Positions 3,529 through 20,274 of a stretch of 44,399 bases of DNA are shown here, one piece after another. The notes below the pieces were generated by a model. The model was not told the DNA's origin. It saw only the letters and a program-made list of their open reading frames with translations, and did no database searches. The stretch lies in the NCBI GenBank assembly GCA_002731795.1, contig PCCQ01000045.1, forward strand, positions 1 through 44,399. The letters run 5' to 3'. This DNA comes from Fidelibacterota bacterium. Its GTDB lineage: Bacteria > Fidelibacterota > Marinisomatia > SCGC-AAA003-L08 > D37C17. Within the stretch, counting starts at the first letter, position 1. The number at the start of each line of letters is the position of its first letter. A program made the translations under genes and the position numbers.

Positions 3529-3533
3529 TTTAA

Positions 3534-3959
3534 ATGTCAAAATTTAAATTATTTCAAGGCTTTACTTTGACAGAGCTTCTTGTAGGAATTTTATTCTCAA
3601 CCATTACAGCTTCTGCTGTAATAAGTGGCTCAATTTATGTAAAAAAAACACTTAATAATATCCAATATAAAGAGTTGGCTTTTGAAAAATTAAAAGGACA
3701 TACAGAATTTTGGAAAGGGCGTATAGCTGCTAAGGATATACCTACCAACCTTTCAGATTGTGAAGAAAATGTATGTTTAAAAGAGAATGAAGATGAGGAT
3801 TGTATATTCAAAGCTACCGAATTGTGTTATGAAATGAATAGTGTAAACACTGAAGATTCAAATGCTAAGAGATGGGAGTTAACCACTACAATCAATTGGG
3901 AAAATAGTAATCAAGGAGAGAGGGATTTAAGTTTTTATGTTATTCAAATGGAATTTTAA
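3534..3959 (+). CDS. Minor pilin / pseudopilin (GspI/PilV-like size class)
   Basis: N-terminus MSKFKLFQG|FTLTELLVGILF is a prepilin cleavage/methylation motif with Glu5. 141 aa with four Cys. Confidence 0.7.
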   Translation: MSKFKLFQGFTLTELLVGILFSTITASAVISGSIYVKKTLNNIQYKELAFEKLKGHTEFWKGRIAAKDIPTNLSDCEENVCLKENEDEDCIFKATELCYEMNSVNTEDSNAKRWELTTTINWENSNQGERDLSFYVIQMEF

Positions 3960-4575
3960 ATCTAAGAAATACAAAATAAGTACTAATCAAGGTTTCACTT
4001 TGGTTGAAGTAATGGCTGCTATAATTATTTCTTTGTCTGTTTTTTGGGGAATAATGAACTTGTATGTTGATATTGTAAAAAATCAGGTTAAAGATCAAAC
4101 AATGGCTGATATTAGATTTAATTTATCCTCAGCTATGGATATGATTTCTCGTGATGTGAGGAATGCTGATTCAATTAGTATTAGTACAACTACATACTCA
4201 AAAAAAATTGACCTATATAATTTTGATAGAAATGGCGACATTGAAGAACTACATTCATATAGTGCAAAAAATGATTTAGGGATTTTATACAATGATGAAC
4301 CGATAATCATACCGGGTCGACATTTATTTAATAATGAAGGTTCATATGAAATAACAATTGAAGATTTTGACTGTAAATTAGCTCTAAATGTGTACAATAC
4401 TTCAAAAAGGAATTTAAGAGATAATTTTTTTGACCTGACTGTTGAGTTTAAAGTTAAATCAAACAGCGATAATGACTTTGAGAAAATTTATACATTTGAG
4501 CAACAAATATTTGCATTGAATCAATTTTCTATAACTAAATCTGATGATGATGATGATGAATCGCAAGATATATAG
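3937..4575 (+). CDS. Minor pilin / pseudopilin (GspJ/PilW-like)
   Basis: Leader ...STNQG|FTLVEVMAAIIISL has Glu5. ISRDVRNADSISI resembles the PilW/GspJ block. It overlaps the upstream gene by 23 nt, and GAGAGGGA lies upstream of the ATG. Confidence 0.65.
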   Translation: MLFKWNFKSKKYKISTNQGFTLVEVMAAIIISLSVFWGIMNLYVDIVKNQVKDQTMADIRFNLSSAMDMISRDVRNADSISISTTTYSKKIDLYNFDRNGDIEELHSYSAKNDLGILYNDEPIIIPGRHLFNNEGSYEITIEDFDCKLALNVYNTSKRNLRDNFFDLTVEFKVKSNSDNDFEKIYTFEQQIFALNQFSITKSDDDDDESQDI

Positions 4576-6846
4576 ATGATTAAGAACACAAAAATAGAAC
4601 AACATTCTAAAAAATTTTATAGTGGTTTTATACTACCTACTTCATTATTTTTTATGTTTGCAAGCGCTTCAGTAATTATGGTTTATTATAATTGGCTAAG
4701 CAACCAACTTAATGAACTAGATTATAGAATTGCTGTAACCAAAGCTACTTATAATGCAGAAAGTGGAATTGCTGAAAAGGCATTCCCCTACTTATTGCAA
4801 AGCAACTATGTCACTGGCACAGTTTTAGAAGGACGCTCTCTTGATGTTGAGGAAATTGGTTTAAAGATGGGTAGTTATAGAGAAGTAACGATGACTAAAA
4901 ATAATTTATATAATGAACGAATTGGATCCGCAATTGGCTTAGCTACTTGGGGACCTAATAATTCAGATACCATATTTAGAAAATCTGAAATTGTTGGTAG
5001 TCCTGAGGGTTTAGGAAAGTATATGTATTTTACAAATACTGAAAGAGCTGGAGGTGCACCCATGACTTTTGGACCTCCTGGATTTGTAAATGGAGAAAGA
5101 AGAGGTGTAAAGTTTTATGGATCAGATGTCATTGATGGAATAGTTCAAACCAATGATGAAATTTATTTTTCTGATACAGGTTGTCCAGATTTTAGTGAAG
5201 CTGAGTGGTATTTAACACCCGGAAATAATGGTCCGGCAAATGGTAATTGGGGTGGGTGCTCCGGCAATGGTTGGAATGCACTTTTCTCTCCCCAAGAGGT
5301 TGACACAAGTACAAGATGTGAATTAAAATGGCCTCCACCTGGATATGAGAATATGAAACAAGGTAATGCTGACTCTCAATTAAGAATTATCCCTGCAGGA
5401 ATAATAAACAGAGGTGGAAATGGAGCAAAAGACACATTAACCATGACAGAAATTGAGTTTTTTAATACTGGAGAATATATGGTTACTCAGTGGTGGTTTT
5501 TACCTCCTCCCCATTTGAAATCTGGATTAAGCTCAACTCAAGTTATAAACCCTTATCCACAGCATTTAGATGGTTTTAATGAACTATGTAATTCTATTGC
5601 TGGATGTAACCCAGCAACTTTTAACTATAATGATGATAAAGCTGCAGGTTTTCCAATTCTTGATCAAATTTGTGTATCCCCTACCGAAACTGGAGACCCT
5701 ACAGTGCAAGATATTTCAATTTATGGATGCAAGCCATATCTTGATTCTCTTATGTCATATCATGGTAAATACATGATACCAAATAATATTTATGATAATC
5801 CTCAAATTGAATCATTAATGGATCCGTTTTCAGGTAATGGGCCGTATTTTGATGATCCAGAATGTCCTCCAGGTGAGAACTGCTATCCTTTTGGACCTCA
5901 TGGTATAGCAGGTCAACACTTTGATTTTGAGCATAACATTGATAATCCAAATAATCCTAATTTACCAATAAATACTCTTCCTTATCCAGGAGCTCCTCCA
6001 TATATTTATAATTCACAAGGAGTAATTTATGTTGAAGATGGTCCTGTAAGGGTCAAAGGAAATTATAAAGGTAGATATTCAATTGTTACCGATCCTTATA
6101 CACTTTACAGAAGACATGCATGCAATGATAGTATTTTAAATTGCAACACAGAGCTTGATACAATGTGGAATAATATTTGGATTATAGATGATTTAGTAAA
6201 TGCTGACACAGATGGTAGTGGAAATATGGCTCTTCATCAACCAAACTTAGAGACTTGTAGGGGTGGTAGCAATAATGTATTAGGGCTAGTTTCTGGAGCA
6301 AACATTGTAGTCGCAAATACTCCCGAAAATGGGGCAAACAATGGTTGCCCTAGTGGTAATTGCCCCTACCCTACTTCTTCACATGGAGTTAGAATTAATG
6401 CACACATGATTGCACTAAATGAATCTTTTGTAGCTCATTATTGGCAGAATTCTTCAAATTCTATACCAACTAACCCAGGATGGGTAGGTAATATTTATGA
6501 TCCATATTTTACCCCTAACGATGAATTTGATAGGGATACTGGATTTCCTCCGTGGGCAGATGGAAGAGGAAGAAATACAGCAAATGGAACTGGTGGCAGC
6601 GATAGAAGAGGCACCATTTTACTTTGGGGTGGTGTATGTCAAAGATATAGAGGATATGTTCAAAGAAATCCTACAAGTCAATATGGAAATCAATTATGGG
6701 TAGGTTATCAAATTAAAGATTATAACTATGATGATAACTTATTGTGCGGAGGGCCTCCTGCATACCCTGTTGTAGAATGTAAAGGTGGAAATGGAGAAAT
6801 TTCAATTAATATAGTTTCAGCAAAAACATCAAAAGGACTAGAATAA
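4576..6846 (+). CDS. Giant pseudopilin-like protein (GspK/PilX-like N-terminus lacking Glu5) with ~700-aa Cys/Gly/Pro/Asn/Trp-rich domain of unknown family
   Basis: N-terminus ...KKFYSG|FILPTSLFFMFASASVIMVYYNW is a pilin-like hydrophobic helix with Thr at +5. It sits third in the pseudopilin series. I recognise no catalytic motif. Confidence 0.5.
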   Translation: MIKNTKIEQHSKKFYSGFILPTSLFFMFASASVIMVYYNWLSNQLNELDYRIAVTKATYNAESGIAEKAFPYLLQSNYVTGTVLEGRSLDVEEIGLKMGSYREVTMTKNNLYNERIGSAIGLATWGPNNSDTIFRKSEIVGSPEGLGKYMYFTNTERAGGAPMTFGPPGFVNGERRGVKFYGSDVIDGIVQTNDEIYFSDTGCPDFSEAEWYLTPGNNGPANGNWGGCSGNGWNALFSPQEVDTSTRCELKWPPPGYENMKQGNADSQLRIIPAGIINRGGNGAKDTLTMTEIEFFNTGEYMVTQWWFLPPPHLKSGLSSTQVINPYPQHLDGFNELCNSIAGCNPATFNYNDDKAAGFPILDQICVSPTETGDPTVQDISIYGCKPYLDSLMSYHGKYMIPNNIYDNPQIESLMDPFSGNGPYFDDPECPPGENCYPFGPHGIAGQHFDFEHNIDNPNNPNLPINTLPYPGAPPYIYNSQGVIYVEDGPVRVKGNYKGRYSIVTDPYTLYRRHACNDSILNCNTELDTMWNNIWIIDDLVNADTDGSGNMALHQPNLETCRGGSNNVLGLVSGANIVVANTPENGANNGCPSGNCPYPTSSHGVRINAHMIALNESFVAHYWQNSSNSIPTNPGWVGNIYDPYFTPNDEFDRDTGFPPWADGRGRNTANGTGGSDRRGTILLWGGVCQRYRGYVQRNPTSQYGNQLWVGYQIKDYNYDDNLLCGGPPAYPVVECKGGNGEISINIVSAKTSKGLE

Positions 6847-7898
6847 TGTCAATTAGTATTGATATAGGAACAAGTGAAGTTAAACTAGTAGAATTAAACA
6901 CAGTAAATGATGATGCTGTCGTATCAAAAGTGCACTCCAAATCAACATGGAGTGACTTAAATTCTTTTGATCCTGAAAAATTAGAAAAATCTAATTGGGT
7001 GGCATGTATTAATGATATCTGTATAGATACTAAAACTAATACTAAGAAAATTAAATCTTTGACAACTGCAATATCTGGTAAAAATTTATCTGTAAAAGAA
7101 ATTACCACTCTCGAAATGAATGAAGATGAATTATATCAATCATTAGAGTTTGAAGCAAAAAAACATATTCCCTTAGATGGAACTGAGGCTGTAATGGATT
7201 ATTCTATTATTGGTAAAAATAATAACGAAATAGATAAAATTGATGTTTTACTAGTTGCTACTACAAAAAATATAATCAAACAATTTGATTCTATAGTAAG
7301 AGATTCTGGATTTAAAAATTCAATTTTTGATGCAGAACCTATTGCTATGGCTAATTGCTTGACTCATAATTATGGTATCCAAGAAGATGGAATAGATGTC
7401 ATTTTAGATATAGGAACTAGCACTTCTACTCTTGTTGTTTTTGGTAAATCACAGACATTTTTTACAAGAGAAATAGAAACTTCAGGTTTTACTATTATAA
7501 AAGATATAATGAAAAAATATGACACTGATTATTCTGATGCAAAGGATATACTTGAAAGAGATGGGGTTAAATCTTTAGATAGCAATTCAATCGGAAGTGA
7601 TAGTAATGCATTTAGTCTAGAATCTGCTGAAAAAACTATTTTTAGCAACCTAGTTGACGAAATAAGAAAGTCTCTACGATATTATGTTAAATCAAATAAT
7701 GGAAATTCAAATTTTAAACGATTATTTATTTCGGGGGGCTTTGCTGAAATAAATGGTCTTAAAGATTTAATAGCTGATGAACTTCGAATAGAAACTGAGA
7801 TACTAAACCCATTCAATAAAATAGTAAGTGATGTGAAGATTGAAAACCCATCAAAATTTACTGTTGCTGTTGGATTAGCGTTAAGGGGAATGATGTAA
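6846..7898 (+). CDS. pilM: Type IV pilus assembly protein PilM (actin-like ATPase fold)
   Basis: MSISIDIGTSEVKLVEL phosphate-1-like start, a second DIGTSTSTLVVF block, 350 aa, and position upstream of pilN. TAATG stop/start overlap with the upstream gene. Confidence 0.8.
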   Translation: MSISIDIGTSEVKLVELNTVNDDAVVSKVHSKSTWSDLNSFDPEKLEKSNWVACINDICIDTKTNTKKIKSLTTAISGKNLSVKEITTLEMNEDELYQSLEFEAKKHIPLDGTEAVMDYSIIGKNNNEIDKIDVLLVATTKNIIKQFDSIVRDSGFKNSIFDAEPIAMANCLTHNYGIQEDGIDVILDIGTSTSTLVVFGKSQTFFTREIETSGFTIIKDIMKKYDTDYSDAKDILERDGVKSLDSNSIGSDSNAFSLESAEKTIFSNLVDEIRKSLRYYVKSNNGNSNFKRLFISGGFAEINGLKDLIADELRIETEILNPFNKIVSDVKIENPSKFTVAVGLALRGMM

Positions 7899-9146
7899 TT
7901 GAAGAATGATAATTTCATATTAATAAATCTAAATCAAAATATTAGTAAAGCTAGGCAGGCTGCCTATAAAGGTAACAGAGATAAATGGATTATATTTGGA
8001 TTACTATGTTTTATATATATTGGTCTTATTGCTTGGTTTGTGAATATAAATTCAAACTACAATGAGCTTATTAGTCTTCGAGAAGACACAATAAGTAAAA
8101 TTAAAAAAGATACAAGAGATTTAAAGAAAGAAATTAAAAGGCAGCTCGAAAATAGAAATAAAAATCTAAATGAAGATAATAATGATAAAGTCAACCTATT
8201 AAACCTATCTAAAAAAGATATAGAATTAGCATATAAAATTGGTGAAAAAACTATTCCTTGGTCAGAAAAACTAATGCAATTATCTGAAATTACTCCTGAG
8301 GATATGTGTATAACAAAGTTAGAATACGCTAATAATAGTTTAAATATTTCTGCTATATCTAAAATAAAAGACAAGACGCAAAAAGACCAAAAAATACTCA
8401 ATGATTTTATAACTCTGCTCGAAGGTCATGAAGATTTTGGTAAAGAATTTATAGAATACGAACTTAGAAATAGTAAAAGAGTATCAAGGGGTAGTAATCC
8501 GTACTATCAATTCCAAATTTCTGCTCCACTAAAGAAGAAAATCAAAAATAGACTTAATGATATTGTTATTGAAGAAGAAATTCCTAAAAATATAGAGCCT
8601 ATTATTGAAGAAAAGGTTGAAGCTAAGGTTACGGAAAAGGTTGAAGTGAAGGTTGAAGAAGAGCTTGAGGAAAAGGTTGAACCTAAAGTCGAAGAAAATA
8701 AATATTCAGATGATATAATTCAATTAGCTAAAGATATTGATATAAAAGATCCTTTAACCGACAACGTGAAAAAATTTCAAACAGTTCTTAAACTTTTTTC
8801 AGAAAATGATATTGAGTTTGGTTTCCTAGAGTCTGTGACAATTATAAAAAGAGATGAAATTCTAGGTAAAAAGCCAACATCAAGATTTCAAAAAGAGTTG
8901 ATGAAAAAAAATAAGGAAATTGCTTCTGAACAATCATCAATTAAGGTACGTAAATATTCAAAAAATATAATTGCTGCTGCCAAACGCTTAAAAAAGAACC
9001 AAAACAAATCTAATCTTGTTGCAGTTAAACGATTCCAAGAAGCGACAGGCATAGCAAATGAAAGCAGCGCTAATTATGGACTTTGGGATGACTTAACACG
9101 CATTAAATATGAAGATGTTTTACAATCAATAGCGGAAAAACAATGA
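7899..9146 (+). CDS. pilN: PilN-like inner-membrane pilus alignment protein with ~200-aa C-terminal extension
   Basis: TTG start directly after the pilM TAA. N-terminal ILINLNQ resembles the INLLP PilM-binding motif. A single TM helix (WIIFGLLCFIYIGLIAWFV) is followed by a coiled coil and a PilN-like core. The extension carries (E/x)KVE repeats and two related ~55-aa modules. Confidence 0.6.
   Translation: MKNDNFILINLNQNISKARQAAYKGNRDKWIIFGLLCFIYIGLIAWFVNINSNYNELISLREDTISKIKKDTRDLKKEIKRQLENRNKNLNEDNNDKVNLLNLSKKDIELAYKIGEKTIPWSEKLMQLSEITPEDMCITKLEYANNSLNISAISKIKDKTQKDQKILNDFITLLEGHEDFGKEFIEYELRNSKRVSRGSNPYYQFQISAPLKKKIKNRLNDIVIEEEIPKNIEPIIEEKVEAKVTEKVEVKVEEELEEKVEPKVEENKYSDDIIQLAKDIDIKDPLTDNVKKFQTVLKLFSENDIEFGFLESVTIIKRDEILGKKPTSRFQKELMKKNKEIASEQSSIKVRKYSKNIIAAAKRLKKNQNKSNLVAVKRFQEATGIANESSANYGLWDDLTRIKYEDVLQSIAEKQ
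8607..8696 (+). repeat. In-frame tandem 12-nt repeat (GAAAAGGTTGAA-like, ~7.5 copies) encoding EEKVEAKVTEKVEVKVEEELEEKVEPKVEE
   Basis: Read directly from the sequence. Units are gaaaaggttgaa / gctaaggttacg / gaaaaggttgaa / gtgaaggttgaa / gaagagcttgag / gaaaaggttgaa / cctaaagtcgaa. Confidence 0.8.
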
Positions 9147-9694
9147 AAAGAAATATTATTTTATTTAGTATCACAATTTTATTCATTCTAATAATGACAA
9201 CACTTTGGTCTTTTGTGTTAACTGATAAGTATGATCAAATTATTGATCTTGAAGATAGTCAAAAAGAGGCAAATGAAAAATTTATTACAACCCAGATTTT
9301 ATCTGATAGTTTGTACTATGTGTATAATATGTTTGAAAAGAATCTTGCTCAAAGTAAAAATGATCCATTAAACAAGCAAGCATCTCGTACCTTTATTAAT
9401 GATTTAACAGATATTTTTAGTAAAATTAATATTAATGGAGTTGGAGTCAGCCCAGCTAAAAAGTATAAAAAGGGTAAATATACATATATACCTTATGAGC
9501 TTGAATTTACATGTGATTATCCCAGGTTTGGTAGATTATTAGCAGAACTATCTGCTAGCGAGCGAATTATAAAGATAGATGAATTTAAATTTATTAATAC
9601 TCCAGATCAAGTTAGGAGGTCTACAGGTGATAATAAACAATTACCTGGAGCAAAAATAACCATGACAATTTCAACTGTAACATTAAATAAATAA
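9143..9694 (+). CDS. pilO: PilO-like pilus assembly protein
   Basis: ATGA overlap with pilN, an N-terminal TM helix and a coiled coil. The C-terminal block YELEFTCDYPRFGRLLAELSASERIIKIDEFKF is typical of PilO. Confidence 0.65.
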   Translation: MKRNIILFSITILFILIMTTLWSFVLTDKYDQIIDLEDSQKEANEKFITTQILSDSLYYVYNMFEKNLAQSKNDPLNKQASRTFINDLTDIFSKININGVGVSPAKKYKKGKYTYIPYELEFTCDYPRFGRLLAELSASERIIKIDEFKFINTPDQVRRSTGDNKQLPGAKITMTISTVTLNK

Positions 9695-9698
9695 TTTT

Positions 9699-10220
9699 AT
9701 GGATAAACGAGAAAACCTACTTTGGCAAATGATACTTACAATAGCTTTTATTGCTATTGCATATGTTGGCTATTCATTATACTACGATAACGATGGATAT
9801 CTTCAGTTACTAGATGATTTTGAATCTGAAGAAATTGGTACTGATAGGCAACTAAAAGATAAAGTGCAAAAACTTGAAATTAGCTTAAAAGAAAAACAGG
9901 ACTTTATTACAGATGGTAGTGAAACAAAATACTACATCGGTCCAGAAGATAATCCTTCTAACTTATTATCAGTGATAAAACTTGAAGGATTTGAATCTAT
10001 GGCTAATCAGCACTTAAAAATAGATAATATTAGATATAGCAAAAGATACAAAGGATATAAAGCAACCTTAATTAACTCCTATGGTGATATAGTGTTTAAT
10101 TTATCTCTAAATGATACTATATCAGGTGGAAAGATTGTTGATATAGGTTCAGACTTTGTAGTTTTTGAAAAAGATAATGAAAGATTTACATACGATATGT
10201 ATAATGAGGAAGGTCAATAA
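9699..10220 (+). CDS. pilP: PilP-like pilus assembly protein (TM-anchored rather than lipoprotein)
   Basis: Position between pilO and the secretin, and an N-terminal TM helix (LWQMILTIAFIAIAYVGYSLYY). The C-terminal beta-rich block KATLINSYGDIVFNLSLNDTISGGKIVDIGSDFVVFE resembles PilP/GspC HR domains. Confidence 0.55.
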   Translation: MDKRENLLWQMILTIAFIAIAYVGYSLYYDNDGYLQLLDDFESEEIGTDRQLKDKVQKLEISLKEKQDFITDGSETKYYIGPEDNPSNLLSVIKLEGFESMANQHLKIDNIRYSKRYKGYKATLINSYGDIVFNLSLNDTISGGKIVDIGSDFVVFEKDNERFTYDMYNEEGQ

Positions 10221-11716
10221 TGAAAATAACTTATTTAGAAAAAAATAACATTTTAAAAACCATCATCCTAAATCAAATGAAAAGGACATTAATATGTTTA
10301 TTTGCTTTTTCAGGTATATTTGCTAACCCACAACTTGATGATATGGGAGAGATAACCATTAAAGCTGTAGACTCCAGTTTATCTGGAATTTTATCTATTT
10401 TAGCTGATGAGAGTGGATATAACATTGTTACTGGTCCAAATGTTAATTCATCAGAGAGAATAACTATTAATCTTGTTGATACTCCAATTGATCAAGCTAT
10501 TGATATGATAGTTCGTGCAGCTGGATTAAGCTATGAAATTCAAGGCAATTCTATTCTAATTGCAAATGCAGATCGATTAAACAGTGATGTTGGAATAAGT
10601 TCTCATGTGATTCCACTAAAATATGCAAACGCTGAGGATGTTGTTGGCTTACTAGCAAATATTACCGAAAAGATTACAGTTGATAAAGCAGGTAATAATT
10701 TATTAGTTACAGTAAGTCCAAAGAAATTAGCTGAAATTCAAACTATAATAGAAGAAGTAGATAAACCTGCAATTCAAATAATGCTTGAGGCTAAGCTTAT
10801 TGAAGTTGCTTTATCTAATGAAGATAAGGAAGGTATTGATTGGGCTAAACTATCTGAGTTAACAACTATTATTGCTGAAAGTGGTGTTCCTCTTCAACTT
10901 GATACCGGAGGTGAAACTGCTTCTTTACTTCCAGGGAGCTCATTTTCTACTTCAACTGAGGGCTTAGTTACTGAAACTCTTACTCCACAAGCATTTCAGC
11001 AACTTCCGTCTGAAATGTATTTTCAAAGAATAACTGGCAAGAATGCTGGATTCAGTAGACAGTTAACCGCATTTGAAGTTACTTTAGACTTCTTGATGAA
11101 AAATAATAGAGCAGATATATTGACAAATTCTCAAGTCGTAACATTGAATGGTCATGAGGCCACAATTTCTATGGTTGATGTAGTACCTTACATTTTATCT
11201 AGTGGAGGACTTGGTGGGCAAGTTCAAGTTCAAAGAGAAGAGATAGGTATAAAATTACATATCCTACCTACTGTAAATACAGATGGATACATAACAACAT
11301 CAGTTAGACCTGAAGTAAGTTCTATATTTGAGTTTATTGGTCCAGATAGAAACATTCCATGGGTTAAAAAAAGGCAATCTACGACAACAATTAGGGTAAT
11401 GGATAATGAATCAATAATAATAGGTGGTCTTCTATCTCTTGACAAAAAAAAGGTTGAGCATCGCGTCCCTTTCTTTTCAAGTATTCCGTTTATTGGCGAA
11501 CGTTTTTTTAGACATAGTTCTGAAATTGAATCAAAAACTGACCTTGTAATACAAATTACTCCCAAAATCATTTATGATAATTACAGCGGCATTAACAAAA
11601 ATCCTTTTCACATTGAGACTGAAAATAAATCTATAACTTATGGCTTAGATGTGGATGATAATAAAAGTGCTAAAAAGAAAACTAAAAAGTCCGACAAAAA
11701 GAAAAAGGAAAAGTAA
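10220..11716 (+). CDS. pilQ: Secretin (PilQ/GspD family) outer-membrane channel
   Basis: Secretin C-domain blocks ILTNSQVVTLNGHEATISMVDVVPY, IGIKLHILPTVNTDGYIT and VPFFSSIPFIGERFFRHSSEIESKTDLVIQITPKII, with an N0/N1-like N-terminus. The true start may be Met20 (10277, MKRTLICLFAFSGIFA signal). No AMIN domain is evident, and the tail is Lys-rich. Confidence 0.88.
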   Translation: MKITYLEKNNILKTIILNQMKRTLICLFAFSGIFANPQLDDMGEITIKAVDSSLSGILSILADESGYNIVTGPNVNSSERITINLVDTPIDQAIDMIVRAAGLSYEIQGNSILIANADRLNSDVGISSHVIPLKYANAEDVVGLLANITEKITVDKAGNNLLVTVSPKKLAEIQTIIEEVDKPAIQIMLEAKLIEVALSNEDKEGIDWAKLSELTTIIAESGVPLQLDTGGETASLLPGSSFSTSTEGLVTETLTPQAFQQLPSEMYFQRITGKNAGFSRQLTAFEVTLDFLMKNNRADILTNSQVVTLNGHEATISMVDVVPYILSSGGLGGQVQVQREEIGIKLHILPTVNTDGYITTSVRPEVSSIFEFIGPDRNIPWVKKRQSTTTIRVMDNESIIIGGLLSLDKKKVEHRVPFFSSIPFIGERFFRHSSEIESKTDLVIQITPKIIYDNYSGINKNPFHIETENKSITYGLDVDDNKSAKKKTKKSDKKKKEK

Positions 11717-11719
11717 TCT

Positions 11720-14700
11720 ATGAAAAGCATAAACTATTCAAACTATAAAGTGCTATTAATATATATTTTCTTACTAATATTTTCACTTTCCTGCGATAAT
11801 TCAGAGCCAGTTTCGGCTGAAAATCCAAATTTAATATATACTATTTCAGTGCAAACAGAAGTAAGAAATTGCCATCTATTAAATTGTGTCGAAAATACAA
11901 CCTATGCATATGATGTTGATAATCCTCTTACAACAGACTATCATTTATATTTTCAAATAGAAATACTTGATTCAGATGATGAACCTGTTGAAGGAGCTGA
12001 AATTAATGTACAAGAATGCATCCTGACTGGTGGCGACTCTTCAAGCTGTGAATCAACTACGTCCAGTTTTGCATACTTTGATGGTGGAAGCTCCACCACA
12101 AATAGCGAAGGTATTTTAGAAGGATACTGGAAAGATAATGGAGAAAGTGGCTTATTTAATGTTACTTTTTCATATACAGATCAATATGAAACTATTAATC
12201 AAACAACTGAGCAAATTACTGTTAACTCTCTTTCAGATTTCATTAATTTAAGTGTTACAACATCTACTAGCGAAGTTTTTAGTGACAATACAAATGTAAC
12301 TTATCAAACTACTATATCAGCTAGAGTACTAAATGAGTATAATTCTTCTATGCCAAACATTCCAATCTTATTCAATCTTCTTACAGATGGTGTGGGATCG
12401 TTGGATAATTCATTAGCTTACACATCTGATACCGGTGAGCCTGCATCTGCAGTTTACACAATAGAACCAGCATCAATTCCAGGCCTAAGTAGTAATAATG
12501 TTGATGTTGTTTTTAGTATATCTGTATTCAATGAAGACATTGCTGAAACTCTTGAAGCAACATATCCTGTATCTGGTGGACAAGAACCAGAATATGATAT
12601 AGCAGAATTCTATTTCTATCCAAACTATGAGTCTATTCCTCATGATCAATATGATAATACAGAGATATCAGTAATTGCAAAAAATCAAGCTGGAGTTGGT
12701 ATATCTAATGTTCTTGTCAGATTTGCTCTAGATGCTGAGCAAAGAGGATCAAATGGTGAAATTAGTCATGAATTTGAATATACCTGTTGCGAAAACTCAG
12801 ACTCAGATTCTACTATAGTTGAAGGTCAGAATGGTGTAGCAAGTGTTACATACACAAATATACAAGGTGGAAATGATATTTTAACTGCTTATGTTCTTGA
12901 CCCCTTTACTTCGGAAATCTTAACGGATTCAGAAGGAAATCAAATAGGAACAGATAATATTACAATAGTAAATAATGAGGCATGCCCTAATTGTGATGAA
13001 GATTTGAGATTGGTTGCTTCTAATTATTTACTTCCTGACAGTAATGGCCTAGAATCAACTGATGTATATGCTTTTTATACAGATTCATTAGGAAATCCTC
13101 CAGCCTTAAATTCATTCATGACATTCTCTGCAATCCAAACTGATCCAGATAATGACGGTGAATGGCTTGAAGCTGGATCTCTAAATCCTGAAAATGGATT
13201 ATTTGTTTCTGCTCAAGCAGGTGAACTCGATGACCCTATATTTAATAGCTTTCCAGATGACACTACAATTGTATATGCAAAAACAACATTTAATGCAGAA
13301 ACTGCATCAGGACTAGTTAAAGTAGTTGGTCTTTATGAAGGCTTAACAGATACTCTTGGTGTTCAAATCTCATCATCATATGCGCACTCAGTTTCTATAA
13401 CCCCTCCATTCCCAAGTGTTATATCTGTACAAGGAAGTCCAACAGATGAGTCTACTGTACTTGAAGCAGTTATAACTGATGCCTTTGGAAATAATGTTAC
13501 AGAACCTTATATAACTAGATGGAAGTTAACTAATGAAACAGTCCTTGGGGGCGTACATCTTGATGGAAATGAAAATTTAAGTGACGCATATTCAATTTCA
13601 ACATTAGGTGTATCAAATATAACAGTGAACTCAGGCCAGGTACCAGCATCAGTAGCAATGAATTTAGAAGTTCATCCTTATTCCGTTTTAGAAACCATAG
13701 AAAATGCTGATGAACTAGATGCCTTAGATGTAGATGATTTAGATGGTGATGGTTCAACCAGTGATAGATTATATGAGCCTATTTGTTCTGCATATTCAGT
13801 ACCATTAACAGTTGCATCTGGTCCAGCGACTTCAGGTATTATTGGATACTCTTTTTTGGAAGCTGAGAATATTGGTGGTGGATTAACAGAAATGCCAGTC
13901 TCAATAATGCTTTGGGATACATGGGCAAACCCCGTTGTGGATTCAACATCTGTTTATTTTACATTAAATCCTGAAAATTTAGCAGAAATAGGAGCTGAAG
14001 CAAAAACTAATAATGTAAAACCTGGAGGTGATCCTGATTCAGATCACTGGCCCGGAGTTGCTTGGACAACAATTACATATAATTCAGCACAACTCCATGA
14101 AGTTCCTGAAATTTTAGGTTATACAACTGGAAGCTTTTGCGCTGATAGTCTATCTTCATACGAAGAGTGTGCAGAATTAGAGCTTGAATGGCTCACAAGT
14201 CAACAAATTGTTGTTTCAAGTTTTGCTAATCCTGTAGACTATGAAAATGTTTGTGTTGATTGCTCATTGTCATTACTTCCATTGTCTGATACTCAAGTAG
14301 ATTGGGCTTGCCCTGCAAACCCTAACCCTAATAATGATATTTTTGAAGTGATACTAAGAGCCCAGCTTCTTGACTTCTATGGTGTACCTGTCCAGGGCTC
14401 TAATGTTGAACTTATATATACAGGTTCGCAAGGTGCTCCTACAGTAGAAGCAATTTTAAACTTATGTTATTTTGATATAAATGGTAATGGTGAATATGAT
14501 GATGGTGAGGAACAAGTAGATAGTGAAACAGGTGAACCACTTACTCAAGAACAATGTGATGCAACAACAGTACTTACTTGGGGGCAAGCATTTATTTTGG
14601 AACCACCTAGCAATCAAGTTTTAACAGATGAAGATGGAAATAAATATTTTAGAATTACATTTAATCATAATGAATGTACACTAACGGCGTCTGATCCTGA

Positions 14701-14806
14701 ACAGTATACATGTACTAGCCCAACTATTTTTGCAAATCTTGTAAATCCAAATGGTGCTCAAAGTGATGAAGTAAGTGTAACACTGCTAAGTACTTGTACA
14801 GATTAA
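11720..14806 (+). CDS. Large acidic lipoprotein with ~7 Ig-like (Big_1-like) modules and two EF-hand/dockerin-like Ca-binding loops; function unknown
   Basis: Lipobox LIFSLS|C. Recurring ~100-aa modules have the pattern xDxxGNPVxxxxVxF ... G.A.VTYT...G...LTAYV. Loops are DVDDLDGDGSTSD (13727-13765) and DINGNGEYDDGEE (14474-14512). There are many paired Cys. Confidence 0.55.
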   Translation: MKSINYSNYKVLLIYIFLLIFSLSCDNSEPVSAENPNLIYTISVQTEVRNCHLLNCVENTTYAYDVDNPLTTDYHLYFQIEILDSDDEPVEGAEINVQECILTGGDSSSCESTTSSFAYFDGGSSTTNSEGILEGYWKDNGESGLFNVTFSYTDQYETINQTTEQITVNSLSDFINLSVTTSTSEVFSDNTNVTYQTTISARVLNEYNSSMPNIPILFNLLTDGVGSLDNSLAYTSDTGEPASAVYTIEPASIPGLSSNNVDVVFSISVFNEDIAETLEATYPVSGGQEPEYDIAEFYFYPNYESIPHDQYDNTEISVIAKNQAGVGISNVLVRFALDAEQRGSNGEISHEFEYTCCENSDSDSTIVEGQNGVASVTYTNIQGGNDILTAYVLDPFTSEILTDSEGNQIGTDNITIVNNEACPNCDEDLRLVASNYLLPDSNGLESTDVYAFYTDSLGNPPALNSFMTFSAIQTDPDNDGEWLEAGSLNPENGLFVSAQAGELDDPIFNSFPDDTTIVYAKTTFNAETASGLVKVVGLYEGLTDTLGVQISSSYAHSVSITPPFPSVISVQGSPTDESTVLEAVITDAFGNNVTEPYITRWKLTNETVLGGVHLDGNENLSDAYSISTLGVSNITVNSGQVPASVAMNLEVHPYSVLETIENADELDALDVDDLDGDGSTSDRLYEPICSAYSVPLTVASGPATSGIIGYSFLEAENIGGGLTEMPVSIMLWDTWANPVVDSTSVYFTLNPENLAEIGAEAKTNNVKPGGDPDSDHWPGVAWTTITYNSAQLHEVPEILGYTTGSFCADSLSSYEECAELELEWLTSQQIVVSSFANPVDYENVCVDCSLSLLPLSDTQVDWACPANPNPNNDIFEVILRAQLLDFYGVPVQGSNVELIYTGSQGAPTVEAILNLCYFDINGNGEYDDGEEQVDSETGEPLTQEQCDATTVLTWGQAFILEPPSNQVLTDEDGNKYFRITFNHNECTLTASDPEQYTCTSPTIFANLVNPNGAQSDEVSVTLLSTCTD

Positions 14807-14824
14807 AATTGAAAGGATAATTTA

Positions 14825-16543
14825 ATGAGTTATAATCCACAATTTGCAAAACTTGGTGAGATTTTAGTTAATGAAAACATGATAACTGAAGAACAGTTAA
14901 ATCAAGCTTTAGCAGAACAAAAAAATAAAAAAGGTAAACTTGGAAATATTCTTATTGCAAGTGGAACAATCACAGAAGATGATTTGGTAAAAGCATTTTC
15001 TCTTCAGCTTGGAAGTAAGTCTATTAGTGAAGATGAACTTTTAAAAGCTCCTGAAGAAACTGTAAAGCTTTTAGCTGAAGATTTTGCAAAAGAAAATAAT
15101 GTAATCACACTAAAGCAAACAGATAACTCGATATATGTTGCAATGGAAGACCCTGAGGATGTTGCAACAATAGATGCAATAAAAAAGCTCACTAATTTAA
15201 ATCCTGAAATTCTAGTTGCAGGAAAAACTGCTATAAGCAATGCTATTGAAACTTTATATGAAAGAGTTAAAAAATCTGGAGAAGTTGAAAGTGCTATTTC
15301 CAATATAAAGGTAATACCTGGAAGTGAGGACGATGGTGATGAACTTGATTTAGTTGAAGAAAAAGTTTCTGCTAAAGATGCTCCATTTGTAAAATTAGTT
15401 AACCTAATTTTAACAGAAGCAATTAAAGAAGATTCATCTGATATACATATAGAACCTGGTAGGGATGAAGTGAATGTCAGAATAAGAGTTGATGGAGTTT
15501 TAATTAGAATAATGACCCCCCCTGCTTCCTCTCTTAATGGTATAGTAACAAGGATTAAAATTCTTTCAAAACTTAACATTGCTGAACATAGATTGCCACA
15601 AGACGGTAGAATGAAAATCAAAACATCCTCTAGAGACATCGATGTAAGGGTTTCTATACTACCTACAGTTCATGGTGAAAAAGTTGTTCTTAGATTACTT
15701 GGAAGTGGAAAGTTATCTCTTAATCTTAGCAATCTTGGTTTTGAAGAAAAAAAATTAACTACATTTAAAAAATGGATAAATCAACCATACGGAATGATAA
15801 TTATATCTGGACCAACTGGTAGTGGTAAATCGACAACATTGTATGCAGCCCTTCAAGAAATACATTCAGAAGGAATTAATATAACAACAGTTGAAGATCC
15901 AGTGGAATACCAATTACCAGGAATAAATCAAGTGCAAATGCATGATGAGATTGGGTTGAACTTTGCTGCATCATTAAGATCTATTCTTAGACAAGACCCA
16001 GATGTGTTATTAATTGGTGAGATAAGAGATGAAGAAACTGCAAACATAGCTGTTAAATTTTCTATGACTGGTCACTTAGTATTCAGTACTGTTCATGCTA
16101 ATGATGCTACATCAACAATCGCTAGGCTTCTTGATTTAGGAATTCCTCCTTTCTTGCTCGGTTCTTCATTAAATCTTGTAATGGCACAAAGACTTGTAAG
16201 AACAATTGATAAAGATAATAAAGAAAACTATACGCCTACAAAAGATGAGTTAGATCTAATATCTTTCCCAAAAGATAAACAAAAATCTACAAAGTTTTTT
16301 AGAGGAACTCCTAGTAGAGACAATCATAATACTGGATATAAAGGTCGAACTGCGATTCATGAAATTCTAGAAGTTGATAATCCTATGAAAAAATTAATTT
16401 TTGATGGTGCGAATCAAAATGAAATTAAAAAAGAAGCTATTAAAAATGGAATGACGCCTCTAAGAGATGCTGGAATCTCAAAAATCGTTAGTGGCGATAC
16501 AACTATTGATGAAGTCCTAAGAGCAACTGTAGAAGATATTTAA
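14825..16543 (+). CDS. pilB: Type IV pilus extension ATPase PilB (GspE family)
   Basis: 572 aa with a T2SSE_N-like N-terminus. Walker A GPTGSGKST, Asp box, Walker B DPDVLLIGEIRD, His box TGHLVFSTVHAND, and the TGYKGRTAIHEIL block. The ORF contains no cysteine. Confidence 0.9.
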   Translation: MSYNPQFAKLGEILVNENMITEEQLNQALAEQKNKKGKLGNILIASGTITEDDLVKAFSLQLGSKSISEDELLKAPEETVKLLAEDFAKENNVITLKQTDNSIYVAMEDPEDVATIDAIKKLTNLNPEILVAGKTAISNAIETLYERVKKSGEVESAISNIKVIPGSEDDGDELDLVEEKVSAKDAPFVKLVNLILTEAIKEDSSDIHIEPGRDEVNVRIRVDGVLIRIMTPPASSLNGIVTRIKILSKLNIAEHRLPQDGRMKIKTSSRDIDVRVSILPTVHGEKVVLRLLGSGKLSLNLSNLGFEEKKLTTFKKWINQPYGMIIISGPTGSGKSTTLYAALQEIHSEGINITTVEDPVEYQLPGINQVQMHDEIGLNFAASLRSILRQDPDVLLIGEIRDEETANIAVKFSMTGHLVFSTVHANDATSTIARLLDLGIPPFLLGSSLNLVMAQRLVRTIDKDNKENYTPTKDELDLISFPKDKQKSTKFFRGTPSRDNHNTGYKGRTAIHEILEVDNPMKKLIFDGANQNEIKKEAIKNGMTPLRDAGISKIVSGDTTIDEVLRATVEDI

Positions 16544-17787
16544 TGCCTTCATACGAATATATTGTAAGAACTCAAGATGGTAAGCGGCTTGAAGGAAAAA
16601 TAGAAGCTGAGAACTTAAATCGTGCAAACGAAAAACTTGAAGAAAAAAAATTTACAATTGTAAAGTTAAAAGAGAATGAAGTAGCATTTGACTTTCTGGG
16701 ACCATTTCTAGATAGATTAAATCTAGAAATGGAAAAATTTAAAAATCGAATTCCATTATCAACTCTTGTTTTCTTTACTCGTCAATTATCAACAATGTTT
16801 TCAGCTGGACTTACACTAGAAAAATCTATTTTTTTTCTATCACAAGAAGAAAAAAATAAAAAATTCAAGAAGATACTTGGTGATTTAGATCAAAATATAA
16901 AAAGAGGAATGCTTTTATCAGATACACTTGAACGACATCCAGGTGTTTTTTCAAATCTTTTTATATCAATGGTAAGAGCAGGAGAAGTAAGCGGTAAATT
17001 ATCAGAAACCCTTGAAGAATTAGCTGAATATCTTGAGACTGTAGAAGAAACACAAAGAAAAGTTAAGTCAGCAATGTATTACCCCGTCTTTATAATTGGA
17101 TTTCTTGTGGTTACTTTATTTTTAACATTCACATATCTAATCCCTAGTTTTTCGGATGTTTATGACCAATTAGGATCAGAGCTTCCATATTATACTGTAC
17201 TTATGGTAAATATAGGAGAATGGCTTCAAGCGAATGTATTTTTTGTTTTATTATCAAGTTTTACATCTTTGGCTACAATATGGATGGCAACACTTACTGA
17301 TTCAGGTAAATTATTAAAAGATAGAATGCTACTTAGGATTCCAATATTTGGTAAGATAATAAAAGATAATATCCTAAGTAAATTCTCAAAGACTTTTGGT
17401 ATACTTGTTAATGCAGGAGTACCAATTATAGATACTCTAAATTTAGTTAAAAAGGTGGTTGATAATAGAGTTTATGAACTTGCCACAATTGAAGCATCAA
17501 CAAATATTGAAAATGGTGCAAATATATCTCAAGCACTTAAAAATACTGGAGAATTCCCGTCCGTAATGATACAATTGTTATCTACTGGAGAAGAAACTGG
17601 AGAAATTGACACTCTATCACTCAAGGCTTCAGAATTCTATACTAAGCAAGTAAATGCCAGTGTTGATAGACTTACTTCAATAATTGAGCCATTATTAATT
17701 ATTTTAGTAGGAGGAGTTATTGGAATAATTGTTGTTGCCACATATTTGCCAATTTTCCACTTTGGTACTGCTTTATCAGACTATTAA
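16543..17787 (+). CDS. pilC: Type IV pilus inner-membrane platform protein PilC (GspF family)
   Basis: 414 aa with duplicated GspF-type domains (FTRQLSTMFSAGLTLEKSI and FSKTFGILVNAGVPIIDTL) and three TM segments. TAATG overlap with pilB. Confidence 0.88.
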   Translation: MPSYEYIVRTQDGKRLEGKIEAENLNRANEKLEEKKFTIVKLKENEVAFDFLGPFLDRLNLEMEKFKNRIPLSTLVFFTRQLSTMFSAGLTLEKSIFFLSQEEKNKKFKKILGDLDQNIKRGMLLSDTLERHPGVFSNLFISMVRAGEVSGKLSETLEELAEYLETVEETQRKVKSAMYYPVFIIGFLVVTLFLTFTYLIPSFSDVYDQLGSELPYYTVLMVNIGEWLQANVFFVLLSSFTSLATIWMATLTDSGKLLKDRMLLRIPIFGKIIKDNILSKFSKTFGILVNAGVPIIDTLNLVKKVVDNRVYELATIEASTNIENGANISQALKNTGEFPSVMIQLLSTGEETGEIDTLSLKASEFYTKQVNASVDRLTSIIEPLLIILVGGVIGIIVVATYLPIFHFGTALSDY

Positions 17788-18524
17788 TGATTTTATCTTT
17801 TATTGCTGGATCAATAATTGGTAGTTTCCTTAATGTTGTAATTTTTAGAACACCTCAAAACCTATCAATAATATCCCCTCGGTCACACTGTCCGAAATGT
17901 AAAAGTTTTATCCCGTTTTATTATAATATACCAATAGTTAGTTTCATATTTTTAGGTGGAAAATGTAAACAATGCAATGAAAAAATTTCTTGGCAATATA
18001 TAAGCGTAGAAATTATTACTGGTATACTATTTGTTTTTTCTTTTTCTAAATTCTCACTAAGTGAAGCAATTTTACTTAACGTAGTTTTTTGCTGCTTAAT
18101 CATTATAAGCTATATTGATTTTCATTACTTATTAATTCCATCAATATATTTATACTTATTAATTTTTCTTCTAATTCCTTATACGTATATAACAACTCAG
18201 AGTCCGTATCAAACTATTTTAGGTGCTGTGGCAATTACAACTTATTTAGCTATATGCACACTGATTGTTGGAATAATTAAAAGAGATATAAATATTTTAG
18301 GGTTTGGCGATATTCTGCTTATTATTTTTATTGGTGGATGGCTTGGAATTATCCACTCATTTATTAGTTTGTTTCTTGCAGCGATTATAGGGATTTTATA
18401 TATAATAATAAATAATCATTTAATTAAGAATGAAACAATTAAGATTCCGTTTGGAACATGCTTATCTATTTCATTTACTATAATTACAATTTTAAAAGAG
18501 TATACAAAGCTACTTACTTTTTAA
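17787..18524 (+). CDS. pilD: Prepilin peptidase / N-methyltransferase PilD (peptidase A24)
   Basis: CPKC...CKQC cysteine pairs in the first cytoplasmic loop. Catalytic Asp contexts ISYIDFHYLLIP and GFGDILLIIFIGGWLG. Polytopic membrane protein. TAATG overlap with pilC. Confidence 0.88.
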   Translation: MILSFIAGSIIGSFLNVVIFRTPQNLSIISPRSHCPKCKSFIPFYYNIPIVSFIFLGGKCKQCNEKISWQYISVEIITGILFVFSFSKFSLSEAILLNVVFCCLIIISYIDFHYLLIPSIYLYLLIFLLIPYTYITTQSPYQTILGAVAITTYLAICTLIVGIIKRDINILGFGDILLIIFIGGWLGIIHSFISLFLAAIIGILYIIINNHLIKNETIKIPFGTCLSISFTIITILKEYTKLLTF

Positions 18525-19306: not shown

Positions 19307-19708
19307 ATGGTTATTTTTATGGAAGATAAAGTTAGAATTGATAAATTTTTATGGTGTGTAAGGCTATTCAAAACTCGTCGCCTAGCAAATGAGGCATGCG
19401 TTAAATCAAAAGTTAAAATAAATGATAAAACACTAAAGTCATCATATCATGTAAAGATAAATGATAAAATAACTATAAAAAAAAAACATATAAACATCAC
19501 TATTGAAGTTAAAAATATAATCTCTAAAAGAGTCTCAGCTAAATTTGTGAAACAATATATAAATGATATTACTCCTGAATCTGAAAAAACTAGATTTGAA
19601 GCATCGCACAAAATACCTCACATATATAGAGAAAAAGGATTAGGTCGTCCTACTAAAAAAGAGAGAAGACAGCTTATGAGAAGCTTAGAAAATTATTTTG
19701 AATCTTGA
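19307..19708 (+). CDS. S4-domain RNA-binding protein, Hsp15 (HslR)-like
   Basis: VRIDKFLWCVRLFKTRRLANEACVKSKVKINDKTLKSSYHVKINDKITI matches the Hsp15/S4 pattern. The real start may be the second ATG at 19319. Confidence 0.65.
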   Translation: MVIFMEDKVRIDKFLWCVRLFKTRRLANEACVKSKVKINDKTLKSSYHVKINDKITIKKKHINITIEVKNIISKRVSAKFVKQYINDITPESEKTRFEASHKIPHIYREKGLGRPTKKERRQLMRSLENYFES

Positions 19709-20274
19709 TTAATTTTATTTAATTCAGAAACAATAGTTTGCTCAAGTCTACTGTAGGTAACAGGATCATATTGCTTTAAAATTGCACCTGGGAATGTATC
19801 TATTATTTCTCCATTAACTCCAACTAAAAAAGACCATGGAACTGCAGGAACACCGCCATAAAGATTAGTAATTTCATTTATCTGCTTATTATTACCATAC
19901 AATAATGGATAATTTACTTTATATACATTACCAAAATTTGTTAATGCATCCTTAGAGTCAGACAAACTTATACCAAGAATTTCAAAACCTTTATCATTAT
20001 ACTTATCATGTAATTCAATAAAGTCAGGAATTTCCATTCGACATGGTCCACACCAAGTCGCCCAAAAGTTAATTAGCACAACCTTACCCTTTAGATTAGA
20101 AAGAACATGTAAACTATCATTACTGTCATTTAATTTGAAGTCTGGCGCATAGTTCTTACTCTTTTCAATTAAGGATTTAATTTTACTTATTCTATCTTCT
20201 GATAATTCTGACTCCGAAAAAATAAAACTTACAAATACAAATATAGGGAATATATAAAAAAATAATTTATTCAT
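19693..20274 (-). CDS. Periplasmic TlpA/ResA-like thiol:disulfide oxidoreductase (thioredoxin fold)
   Basis: Signal peptide and the WATWCGPCRMEIP CxxC active site, in an AhpC/TSA-like context. Immediately downstream of dsbD. Confidence 0.8.
   Translation of the reverse strand: MNKLFFYIFPIFVFVSFIFSESELSEDRISKIKSLIEKSKNYAPDFKLNDSNDSLHVLSNLKGKVVLINFWATWCGPCRMEIPDFIELHDKYNDKGFEILGISLSDSKDALTNFGNVYKVNYPLLYGNNKQINEITNLYGGVPAVPWSFLVGVNGEIIDTFPGAILKQYDPVTYSRLEQTIVSELNKINQDSK

Follow-up and report, generated by a model that had tools for sequence, protein, structure and literature searches.

Background

Few bacterial machines have been studied as thoroughly as type IV pili, whose inventory of parts is held to be all but complete. 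We describe here a gene for a 1028-residue lipoprotein of immunoglobulin (Ig)-like repeats, which lies between the secretin gene pilQ and the assembly ATPase gene pilB of a pilus operon in a stretch of 44,399 nucleotides from a Fidelibacterota bacterium (contig PCCQ01000045.1, assembly GCA_002731795.1); this whole stretch is referred to as the window. The Fidelibacterota, the present name of Candidatus Neomarinimicrobiota and formerly Marinimicrobia or SAR406, are among the most abundant bacterial groups of the dark ocean. At the level of its domains the protein is of a known kind, a Big_1 Ig-repeat protein; what is new is that it is very probably an additional, conserved and secretin-linked component of the type IVa pilus.

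The closest described systems are lipoproteins that are exported by, or sit on, a secretin. InvL is an invasin-like lipoprotein exported by a type II secretion system (T2SS) (PMC9245377). PulA needs Asp at P2' to escape default sorting and reach its secretin for export, InvL and other lipoproteins of the Acinetobacter T2SS require a motif rich in Asp/Asn or in Gly right after the lipidated cysteine, and InvL and PulA both need a GspN/AsmA-like helper (PMC12802150). The lipoprotein GspP forms a 15-mer ring on the secretin barrel (PMC10828601). In the literature searched we found no description of a large Ig-repeat lipoprotein fixed between pilQ and pilB; a cultured strain of the Fidelibacterota exists, Fidelibacter multiformis IA91, and its description makes no mention of pili (PMC11652737).

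Results and discussion

Conserved linkage of the lipoprotein gene to pilQ

The gene begins with ATG and ends with TAA at 14804-14806 (Table 1). The pilQ stop codon, TAA at 11714-11716, is followed by the spacer TCT and then by the start codon of the lipoprotein gene, so that the two genes share one reading frame and are separated by TAA-TCT, a gap of 3 nt; at the other end, an 18-nt spacer separates the stop codon from the ATG of pilB. Both junctions match those given in a preliminary description of the locus that had been made from the letters alone. In two related loci, L001 and L038, the last 14 and 4 nt of pilQ, respectively, are shared with the start of the lipoprotein gene. From this spacing we infer that the gene is co-transcribed with pilQ; a scan of the operon for promoters and terminators gave nothing above chance (89 promoter-like sites against 92.5 expected, 9 terminator-like sites against 7.0).

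From a word-indexed search we obtained 19 homologues, 97-30% identical to the window protein and none of them named, and their contigs all show the order secretin, homologue, pilB-pilC-pilD. Eight loci from GTDB genomes labelled Candidatus Neomarinimicrobiota have the same gene order. An exhaustive profile search of 1.84 billion representatives, run with a trimmed alignment, found 512 relatives (211 at E <= 1e-10), many of them full-length (842-2556 residues) and sharing the C-terminal part of the protein. Scanning metagenomes with a remote subgroup, which shares about 25% identity with the window protein, added 17 loci; wherever their flanks could be read, pilQ lay upstream and pilB downstream, and the long ones keep the whole operon order. 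The same slot is filled in the loci of the remote members L034 and L035 and in L042, from the Cloacimonadota (Ca. Stygibacter frigidus). As a protein-based search is biased in its sampling, we also sampled through PilQ, and this second route led to three independent secretin lineages, on six contigs, with a Big_1 protein of 1141-1737 residues between pilQ and pilB.

In total, 42 of 42 loci whose flanks could be read have a family member between the secretin gene and pilB; they come from Fidelibacterota and Cloacimonadota, and the arrangement holds for proteins as little as about 25% identical. Two remoter proteins, a Latescibacterota lipoprotein of 2517 residues and a protein of 2614 residues, directly follow a secretin gene and are not followed by pilB, the next gene being an unrelated open reading frame (ORF) of 259 codons in the first case and a small Big_1 ORF in the second. 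Because these two loci keep the adjacency to the secretin and not that to pilB, the linkage is conserved to the secretin specifically: the gene follows the secretin gene in all 44 loci examined, which represent at least three phyla and two sampling routes. The profile built from the most remote members also matched unrelated Big_1 adhesins (of Yersinia, Pseudomonas and others), and only full-coverage matches were used.

By comparison with a 94%-identical orthologue, the gene is under strong purifying selection, with a ratio of nonsynonymous to synonymous substitution rates (dN/dS) of 0.036, against 0.037 for pilQ and 0.028 for pilB. The constraint is uneven along the protein: dN is 0.034-0.065 in the N-terminal part and 0.007-0.010 in the C-terminal core, and nonsynonymous change is 4-6 times higher in the N-terminal half than in the core. 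At greater distances the lipoprotein diverges much faster than PilB (30-50% against 70-83% identity).

Big_1-repeat adhesins are common and mobile, and a profile of the remote members also recovers unrelated proteins of the intimin/invasin type, so one may ask whether an adhesin gene merely came to lie in a pilus operon by chance. The preliminary description had tied the gene to the pilus machine and had named, as the mark of such a passenger, homologues scattered through genomes without pilus genes and a loss of synteny. The opposite was found: the order secretin, lipoprotein, pilB is conserved in the relatives, and this synteny refutes a chance passenger, to which, with the purifying selection on the gene added, we give next to no credence. 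Rather, the gene sequences and their arrangement indicate that the protein is very probably a standard part or a dedicated passenger of the pilus machine that has not been described before.

In the source records, family members bear the names "Ig-like domain-containing protein", "invasin domain 3-containing protein" or "hypothetical protein". Some taxonomic labels are odd: the record of L009, whose operon shares 94% identity with that of the window, bears the title 'Gammaproteobacteria bacterium', and the P0061 cluster contains a 959-residue member labelled Lentisphaeria next to another labelled Marinimicrobia. These look like binning errors. Two of the remote loci are also organised differently in part. 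In L034 a Wza-like polysaccharide-export gene (Poly_export and SLBB; 8281-9906) lies between the secretin gene and the lipoprotein gene, and in L044 the 2614-residue Big_1 protein is preceded by a differently organised secretin operon (1-7324) with genes for an MglB-like protein (Robl_LC7), a small Arf/MglA-like GTPase, a T2SSE ATPase, PilN and an AMIN-domain protein.

A type IVa pilus operon

The first half of the operon comprises genes for a pilin, a PilT-like ATPase, two small pilin-like proteins, a 756-residue protein of no assigned family, PilM and PilN; the second half continues with pilO, a gene of 173 codons in the PilP position, pilQ, the lipoprotein gene, pilB, pilC (T2SSF) and pilD (prepilin peptidase). 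As judged from its gene content, this is a type IVa pilus operon and not a T2SS, because PilT, PilM, PilN and PilO are present. Pfam matches of the operon genes revealed no recognisable pilotin or TsaP-like gene, and the PilQ of the window is short and AMIN-less.

Several genes of the operon deserve mention in their own right. The gene for the 756-residue protein follows the small pilin-like genes and is kept in all related operons; its product has 17 cysteines, no Pfam or NCBIfam match and a degenerate pilin-like N-terminus (..SGFILPTSL..), and from these features it is possibly a large minor pilin or tip protein of the GspK/PilX kind. PilN has 415 residues in the window and in L007, L009, L010 and L015, about double the length of roughly 200 residues found in most related operons. 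The gene in the PilP position encodes 467 residues in L004/L012 (6881-8284), against 160-185 elsewhere.

Domain architecture and fold

AlphaFold2 predicts an all-beta protein with eight beta-sandwich domains in both of the models that we made. The model of the whole protein has a mean predicted local distance difference test score (pLDDT) of 68 and a predicted template modelling score (pTM) of 0.30; the C-terminal 609 residues, modelled with an alignment of 52 sequences, reach 86.6 and 0.62, respectively. The eight domains fall into an N-terminal stalk and a C-terminal core (Table 1), and the earlier count of about seven modules of some 100 residues came close to this number without reaching it. 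The core is the region common to the distant members; it is always C-terminal and carries the motifs VQG..ES, D..GN.V, NSG..P..V, GP, GGG, LWD.W.NPV.DST.VYF, AEAKT and PGVAWT. The number of stalk modules varies widely among homologues, the longer ones containing inserted extra modules, and the range of protein lengths in the family stems from these additions.

An invasin/Big_1-like signature had been noted in the preliminary description. We tested the Big_1/invasin-type families Pfam PF02369 and PF09134 and found the signature to be clear at the level of the family and weak in the window protein, whose Big_1 match alone (22.9 bits) lies below the Pfam cut-off of 34.9 bits. Among 25 diverse members, Big_1 is matched in every one (E <= 0.01, best 2.4e-46) and Invasin_D3 in 17, with faint matches to MG4 in 9 and to bMG3 in 2. 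The family profile matches the Big_1 domains of intimin in the PDB at E = 6e-7, and these were the only domains that it found there. From the profile matches, membership of the Big_1/Invasin_D3 domain class holds for the family, of which the window copy is a divergent representative. Neither Pfam nor NCBIfam contains a model covering the family as a whole or, in agreement with the preliminary description, a family of canonical type IV pilus or T2SS components that matches the protein. Pfam and the two models revealed no enzyme, lectin, TPR, propeller or helical domain, and Pfam gave no match to IAT_beta, LysM or TIG.

Structure prediction followed by a fold search had been proposed beforehand. 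With the whole-protein model, the search returned only generic strings of Ig or macroglobulin (MG) domains, at TM-scores of 0.1-0.3, and the better core model gave the same picture, with no specific structural homologue and a TM-score of 0.41 for FdeC. The matches comprise complement C5, CD109, alpha-2-macroglobulins (including Salmonella A2M), integrin legs, the S-layer proteins SbsB and SbsC, FdeC and PrgB. Given the low TM-scores, we take these matches to signify a shared type of domain and not a specific homologue.

That complement, alpha-2-macroglobulin and CD109 head the fold searches raises the possibility of a periplasmic guard, anchored in the inner membrane and related to bacterial alpha-2-macroglobulins, which would protect the periplasm when the secretin is open. 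The presence of Salmonella A2M among the matches and the faint MG4 and bMG3 hits are in line with such a guard, as is the Asp that follows the lipidated cysteine (see below), which fits the inner-membrane retention known for enterobacterial lipoproteins. Against it, the protein has no CxEQ thioester motif, both models are all-beta and thus offer no alpha-helical thioester domain, and the TM-scores indicate nothing beyond the domain type. A guard of this kind therefore seems very improbable to us, and membership of the alpha-2-macroglobulins proper was rejected for want of the thioester motif and the helical domain.

Lipid anchor and the post-cysteine motif

The N-terminus, MKSINYSNYKVLLIYIFLLIFSLSC, agrees with a PROSITE-type lipoprotein rule in which the n-region is basic, the h-region is hydrophobic and the lipobox reads [LIVMFWSTAG]2-[LIVMFYSTAGCQ]-[AGS]-C, with its cysteine at residue 15-35; here the cysteine is residue 25, and K2 lies in the n-region. 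Cys25 is invariant in an alignment of 20 sequences, and the lipobox cysteine is present in the 77 family members that have N-termini. The lipobox lipoprotein of the preliminary description is thereby borne out for the window protein and across the family.

The residues behind the cysteine are conserved as well. Position +2 is Asp in 65 of the 77 members and Glu in 5 (Asp/Glu in 70/77), position +3 is Asp or Glu in 40/77, position +4 is Arg in 37/77 and position +6 is Pro in 54/77; the window protein itself reads C-D-N-S at the lipidation site. Members from Cloacimonadota retain C-D-x-R, and those from Latescibacterota have C-E. Other predicted lipoproteins of the same loci, a small sample, start with C-G, C-S-A, C-S-D or C-S-N, and because they lack it, C-D-x-R-x-P is not simply the local default.

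A possible surface rod or partner of the secretin

The mature protein is strongly acidic, as the preliminary description had said, with an isoelectric point (pI) of 4.05, 157 Asp and Glu against 17 Lys and Arg residues, 20 cysteines and a net charge of -140. Lys and Arg make up 1.8% of it, against 10-14% in three other proteins of the operon, PilO, PilQ and the one in the PilP position. Acidity with few Lys and Arg residues is nearly family-wide (pI about 4.05, Lys and Arg 2-5%). A composition of this kind resembles that of large acidic surface adhesins.

We tentatively favour the reading, which we hold at somewhat less than even confidence, that the protein is a conserved accessory lipoprotein of the type IVa pilus, an Ig rod that may be exported with or through PilQ and displayed on the cell surface. 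The protein would be lipidated at the inner membrane, where the acidic residue at +2 would keep it out of default sorting, and would travel to the surface either in company with the PilQ secretin or by way of its pore, much as T2SS secretins move PulA, SslE and InvL. At the surface, the very acidic, Lys/Arg-poor rod would hold its conserved distal core off the membrane, and the core could work alongside the retractile pilus as an adhesin or a spacer, for instance by keeping hold of whatever the pilus reels in. Of the roles suggested in the preliminary description, those of a pilotin or surface shield, an adhesin and a cargo may each apply.

We favour the surface for four reasons. The length of the stalk varies threefold while the core stays distal, which recalls the plan of anchored adhesins such as intimin and invasin and is hard to fit into a periplasm of fixed width, and the composition sets the protein apart from the machine's periplasmic components. 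An acidic residue behind the cysteine is the export feature of PulA; the window protein and the family show the P2'-P4' pattern, Asp/Asn- or Gly-rich, of the PulA/InvL class, and by analogy with that class export would depend on the secretin. Lastly, PulA and SslE are encoded together with the machines that display them. The fold matches, strings of Ig or MG domains that include the adhesins FdeC and PrgB, are also in line with a surface rod.

Several points weigh against surface display. The +2 rule is not universal; what Asp at this position signifies has been established for enterobacteria alone, and here it could equally stand for inner-membrane retention, with a periplasmic role for the protein. 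The machine, by its gene content, is a type IVa pilus and not a T2SS, and we know of no precedent for the export of a lipoprotein by type IVa pili. Among the operon genes, Pfam recognised no GspN/AsmA-like gene, though InvL and PulA need one. The tight coupling to pilQ is more typical of a stoichiometric partner than of cargo, no receptor-binding head is detectable in the protein, and two remote members of the family are not acidic.

The same coupling speaks for the main rival reading, a structural partner of the secretin that stays inside the envelope and could aid the outer-membrane targeting or assembly of PilQ, in place of pilotins (PilF/Tgl), TsaP or extra secretin N-domains. A stoichiometric partner of this kind would account for a linkage that is specific to the secretin gene and persists without an adjacent pilB, for reading frames that overlap or nearly abut, and for a strength of selection like that on the machine parts; it would also suit an operon in which pilotin and TsaP-like genes are not recognised and PilQ is short and AMIN-less. 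There is a precedent in the Ig-like lipoprotein belt DR_1364/GspP round the Deinococcus secretin (PMC10828601). What makes this partner doubtful, if a possibility to be taken seriously, is above all geometry: a protein of 842-2556 residues with a variable stalk and a distal core is odd in a periplasm of fixed dimensions, and the known pilotins and belts are small (about 120-250 residues). The Lys/Arg-poor composition, too, departs from that of the periplasmic parts of the machine, and the only candidate contact examined, a Lys-rich tail of PilQ, is not conserved.

That tail reads KSAKKKTKKSDKKKKEK in the window; outside it, a basic tail occurs only in L009, L007 and L015 (similar or longer poly-Lys), and in most orthologues the tail is strongly acidic; the segment D-N/T-Y-S/T-G-I-x-K just before it is conserved. 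We had considered the basic tail as an electrostatic partner of the acidic lipoprotein and rejected it as a conserved contact, most tails being acidic.

A broader proposal would cover either location: the Ig lipoprotein may represent an obligate class of type IV pilus components in FCB phyla, an extracellular tower or collar or a periplasmic cage at the pilus exit, in which the core contacts PilQ or the fibre, the stalk sets the height and C-D-x-R-x-P is a sorting or docking signal read by the machine. We consider this proposal in its full form unlikely. Such a class would span Fidelibacterota/SAR406 and Cloacimonadota and probably include Latescibacterota.

Loops and cysteines

The preliminary description had drawn attention to two DxDxDG-type loops, and both are present where it placed them, together with a third match (Table 1); the composition of the protein would lead one to expect 0.12 matches to D-x-[DN]-x-[DN]-G, and there are three (P = 0.0002). 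Their distribution is narrow. Loop 1, an insertion, is confined to the window protein and P0001-P0005 and lies in a linker modelled with low confidence (pLDDT <50 at residues 671-674); loop 2 is absent from P0010-P0015, about a third of the close homologues; in the third match, conservation is limited to G-E-W; and the D-x-D-x-D-G motif is missing from many distant members. The EF-hand/dockerin-like character attributed to the loops did not hold up and comes down to a resemblance of motifs. Taking an EF-hand to be a conserved helix-loop-helix with a 12-residue loop that a profile recognises, we found no EF-hand or Dockerin_1 match in the window protein at E <= 0.01 (Pfam), and EF-hand_5 was matched weakly in one of the 25 diverse members. 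Moreover, a dockerin needs two adjacent 22-residue repeats, and loops 1 and 2 are about 250 residues apart.

It had also been suggested that these loops make the protein a calcium sensor analogous to the calcium site of PilY1, which would control extension and retraction of the pilus. The excess of motifs over expectation favours such a sensor, and a protein of this extreme acidity probably binds divalent cations, in a predicted and non-specific manner. The loops, however, are lineage-specific and missing from most distant members, the window protein is matched by neither an EF-hand nor a dockerin profile and lacks a beta-propeller and any PilY1 domain, and the PilY1-like slot of the operon, after the minor pilins, is held by the gene for the 756-residue protein. 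Judged by these sequence comparisons, calcium sensing as a function of the family is largely refuted, and we regard it as highly implausible.

Cysteines are similarly variable. The many paired cysteines of the preliminary description correspond to the 20 of the window protein; across the family they are not conserved, their number ranging from 2 to 59 per member, and CPxC is confined to that half of the family which is closest to the window. Calcium loops, cysteine pairs and CPxC were accordingly rejected as core features of the family, since they vary by lineage. Genes for a TlpA/AhpC-like thioredoxin, DsbD and cyclophilin lie just downstream of the operon and recur in L004 and L007; this cluster may be related to the many disulfides of the protein in the window's subclade.

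Dockerin-bearing neighbours, a Peptidase_C25 gene and GSDH, in L001 and L008 had brought up the idea of a dockerin/cohesin scaffold, which was rejected because the protein has no Cohesin or Dockerin profile match and no cohesin fold match.

Other features of the window

The window has a G+C content of about 31%. A Peptidase_C25 (gingipain-like) gene, divergent from the pilin gene, runs off its left edge; this neighbour recurs in L001 and L008, there with NIDO and Dockerin_1 matches. Farther downstream, the minus strand carries genes for urocanase and an amidohydrolase (histidine utilisation) and a GHL10 glycosidase-like gene, and a run of small ORFs on the minus strand in that stretch is taken to be a putative ribosomal-protein operon.

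Table 1. Positions in the window of the lipoprotein gene, its parts and its neighbours
Feature	Positions	Strand	Basis
Peptidase_C25 gene, partial	3..1727	-	
Type IVa pilus operon holding the lipoprotein gene	2029..18524	+	Pfam matches; gene order recurs in related loci
Gene for the 756-residue protein	4576..6846		
pilN	7899..9146		
pilQ, secretin, 498 aa (STN, Secretin_N, Secretin)	10220..11716	+	Pfam
Tail of PilQ, residues 475-498	11642..11713		
Lipoprotein gene	11720..14806	+	ORF
Lipoprotein signal peptide ending in lipobox F-S-L-S-C, Cys25 predicted to be acylated	11720..11794	+	PROSITE-type rule
Conserved post-cysteine tether, D-N-S-E-P-V in the window, family consensus C-D-[D/E]-R-x-P	11795..11812	+	N-termini of 77 members
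N-terminal stalk, three Big_1-like beta-sandwiches (aa ~41-169, 175-283, 296-418)	11840..12973	+	AlphaFold2; Big_1 match at aa 177-240
C-terminal core, five beta-sandwiches (aa ~428-561, 578-653, 689-807, 824-918, 952-1025)	12977..14803	+	AlphaFold2
Third D-x-D-x-D-G match, DPDNDGEWLEAGS, aa 475, absent from the preliminary description	13142..13180	+	motif match
Loop 1, D-x-D-x-D-G type, DVDDLDGDGSTSD, aa 670-682	13727..13765	+	motif match
Loop 2, D-x-N-x-N-G, DINGNGEYDDGEE, aa 919-931, between core domains 7 and 8	14474..14512	+	motif match
pilB, assembly ATPase (MshEN, T2SSE)	14825..16543	+	Pfam
TlpA/AhpC-like thioredoxin, DsbD and cyclophilin genes	19693..23020	-	
Urocanase, amidohydrolase and GHL10 glycosidase-like genes and a run of small ORFs	25925..28796 and about 30300..44300	-	

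Implications

Whichever location applies, one extra large and conserved gene is kept in the core operon, after the secretin, in every examined member of several FCB phyla. If the lipoprotein is displayed through the pilus secretin, lipoprotein export would extend from the T2SS to type IVa pili, and the protein would be a candidate for the attachment of these uncultured heterotrophs to particles or cells. Should it form a structural ring instead, bacteria without AMIN domains and TPR pilotins would have found a novel way to assemble and support a secretin. On either reading, C-D-x-R-x-P offers a testable lipoprotein-sorting signal in a poorly studied group.

Comparison with known systems

Intimin, invasin and FdeC share with the lipoprotein a rod of Big_1 and Invasin_D3 domains and a plan of anchor, variable stalk and distal part. 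They are autotransported and anchored by an N-terminal beta-barrel, whereas the present protein is predicted to be lipid-anchored, its Ig domains following the signal directly; they also end in a lectin-like head and are not linked to pilus genes, unlike the protein described here.

Among the accessory proteins of pilus secretins, the pilotins PilF, PilW and Tgl are likewise lipoproteins that act on PilQ, which needs them for its outer-membrane targeting and multimerisation, but they are small alpha-helical TPR proteins, in contrast to an all-beta protein of 1028 residues. TsaP is a PilQ accessory with a LysM domain, of which Pfam finds none here, and SlkA and SlkB are soluble periplasmic plugs acting on the PilQ secretin and not Ig rods (PMC13392014). 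None of these proteins is a rod of Ig repeats, nor does the gene for any of them lie between pilQ and pilB. PilY1 and PilC resemble the lipoprotein in being large non-pilin proteins, which are needed for pilus function, PilY1 with a calcium site; PilY1, however, is not a lipoprotein, has a beta-propeller with or without a vWA domain and is encoded with the minor pilins, and the present protein differs on each count. Pfam gives no Neisseria_PilC match in it, and the models contain only beta-sandwiches.

Closer in kind are the belt DR_1364 (GspP) and the cap DR_0940 (GspT) of Deinococcus radiodurans, secretin-associated lipoproteins that replace classical pilotins, of which GspP has an Ig-like (IPT/TIG) fold (PMC10828601). 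Our protein is also an Ig-like lipoprotein, without a TIG match. The two Deinococcus proteins are single small domains (155 and 208 residues), as against 8 to more than 20 domains in the present family, to which they have no sequence relation. DR_0774 and DR_0940 are encoded in different operons, unlike the pilQ-lipoprotein pair, and the association of the Deinococcus lipoproteins with the secretin comes from cryo-electron microscopy, that of the lipoprotein described here from gene linkage only.

The nearest parallels to the favoured reading, a surface-displayed rod, are InvL of Acinetobacter baumannii, PulA of Klebsiella and SslE/YghJ of E. coli, all of them lipoproteins with a special motif behind the cysteine. 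Their machines are type II secretion systems, whereas here it is a type IVa pilus with PilT and PilMNO, and PulA and SslE are enzymes, whereas the present protein lacks a catalytic domain. SslE is encoded beside or within the operon of its secretin machine; InvL, unlike the present protein, is not encoded in the operon of its machine. The motifs are Asp at P2' in PulA and ND(N/D) or GGG in Acinetobacter (PMC12802150). InvL has invasin-like Ig domains, as does the lipoprotein of the window (PMC9245377), and the gene for PulA lies next to or inside the operon of a secretin machine, the one responsible for PulA display (PMC12802150, PMC9245377).

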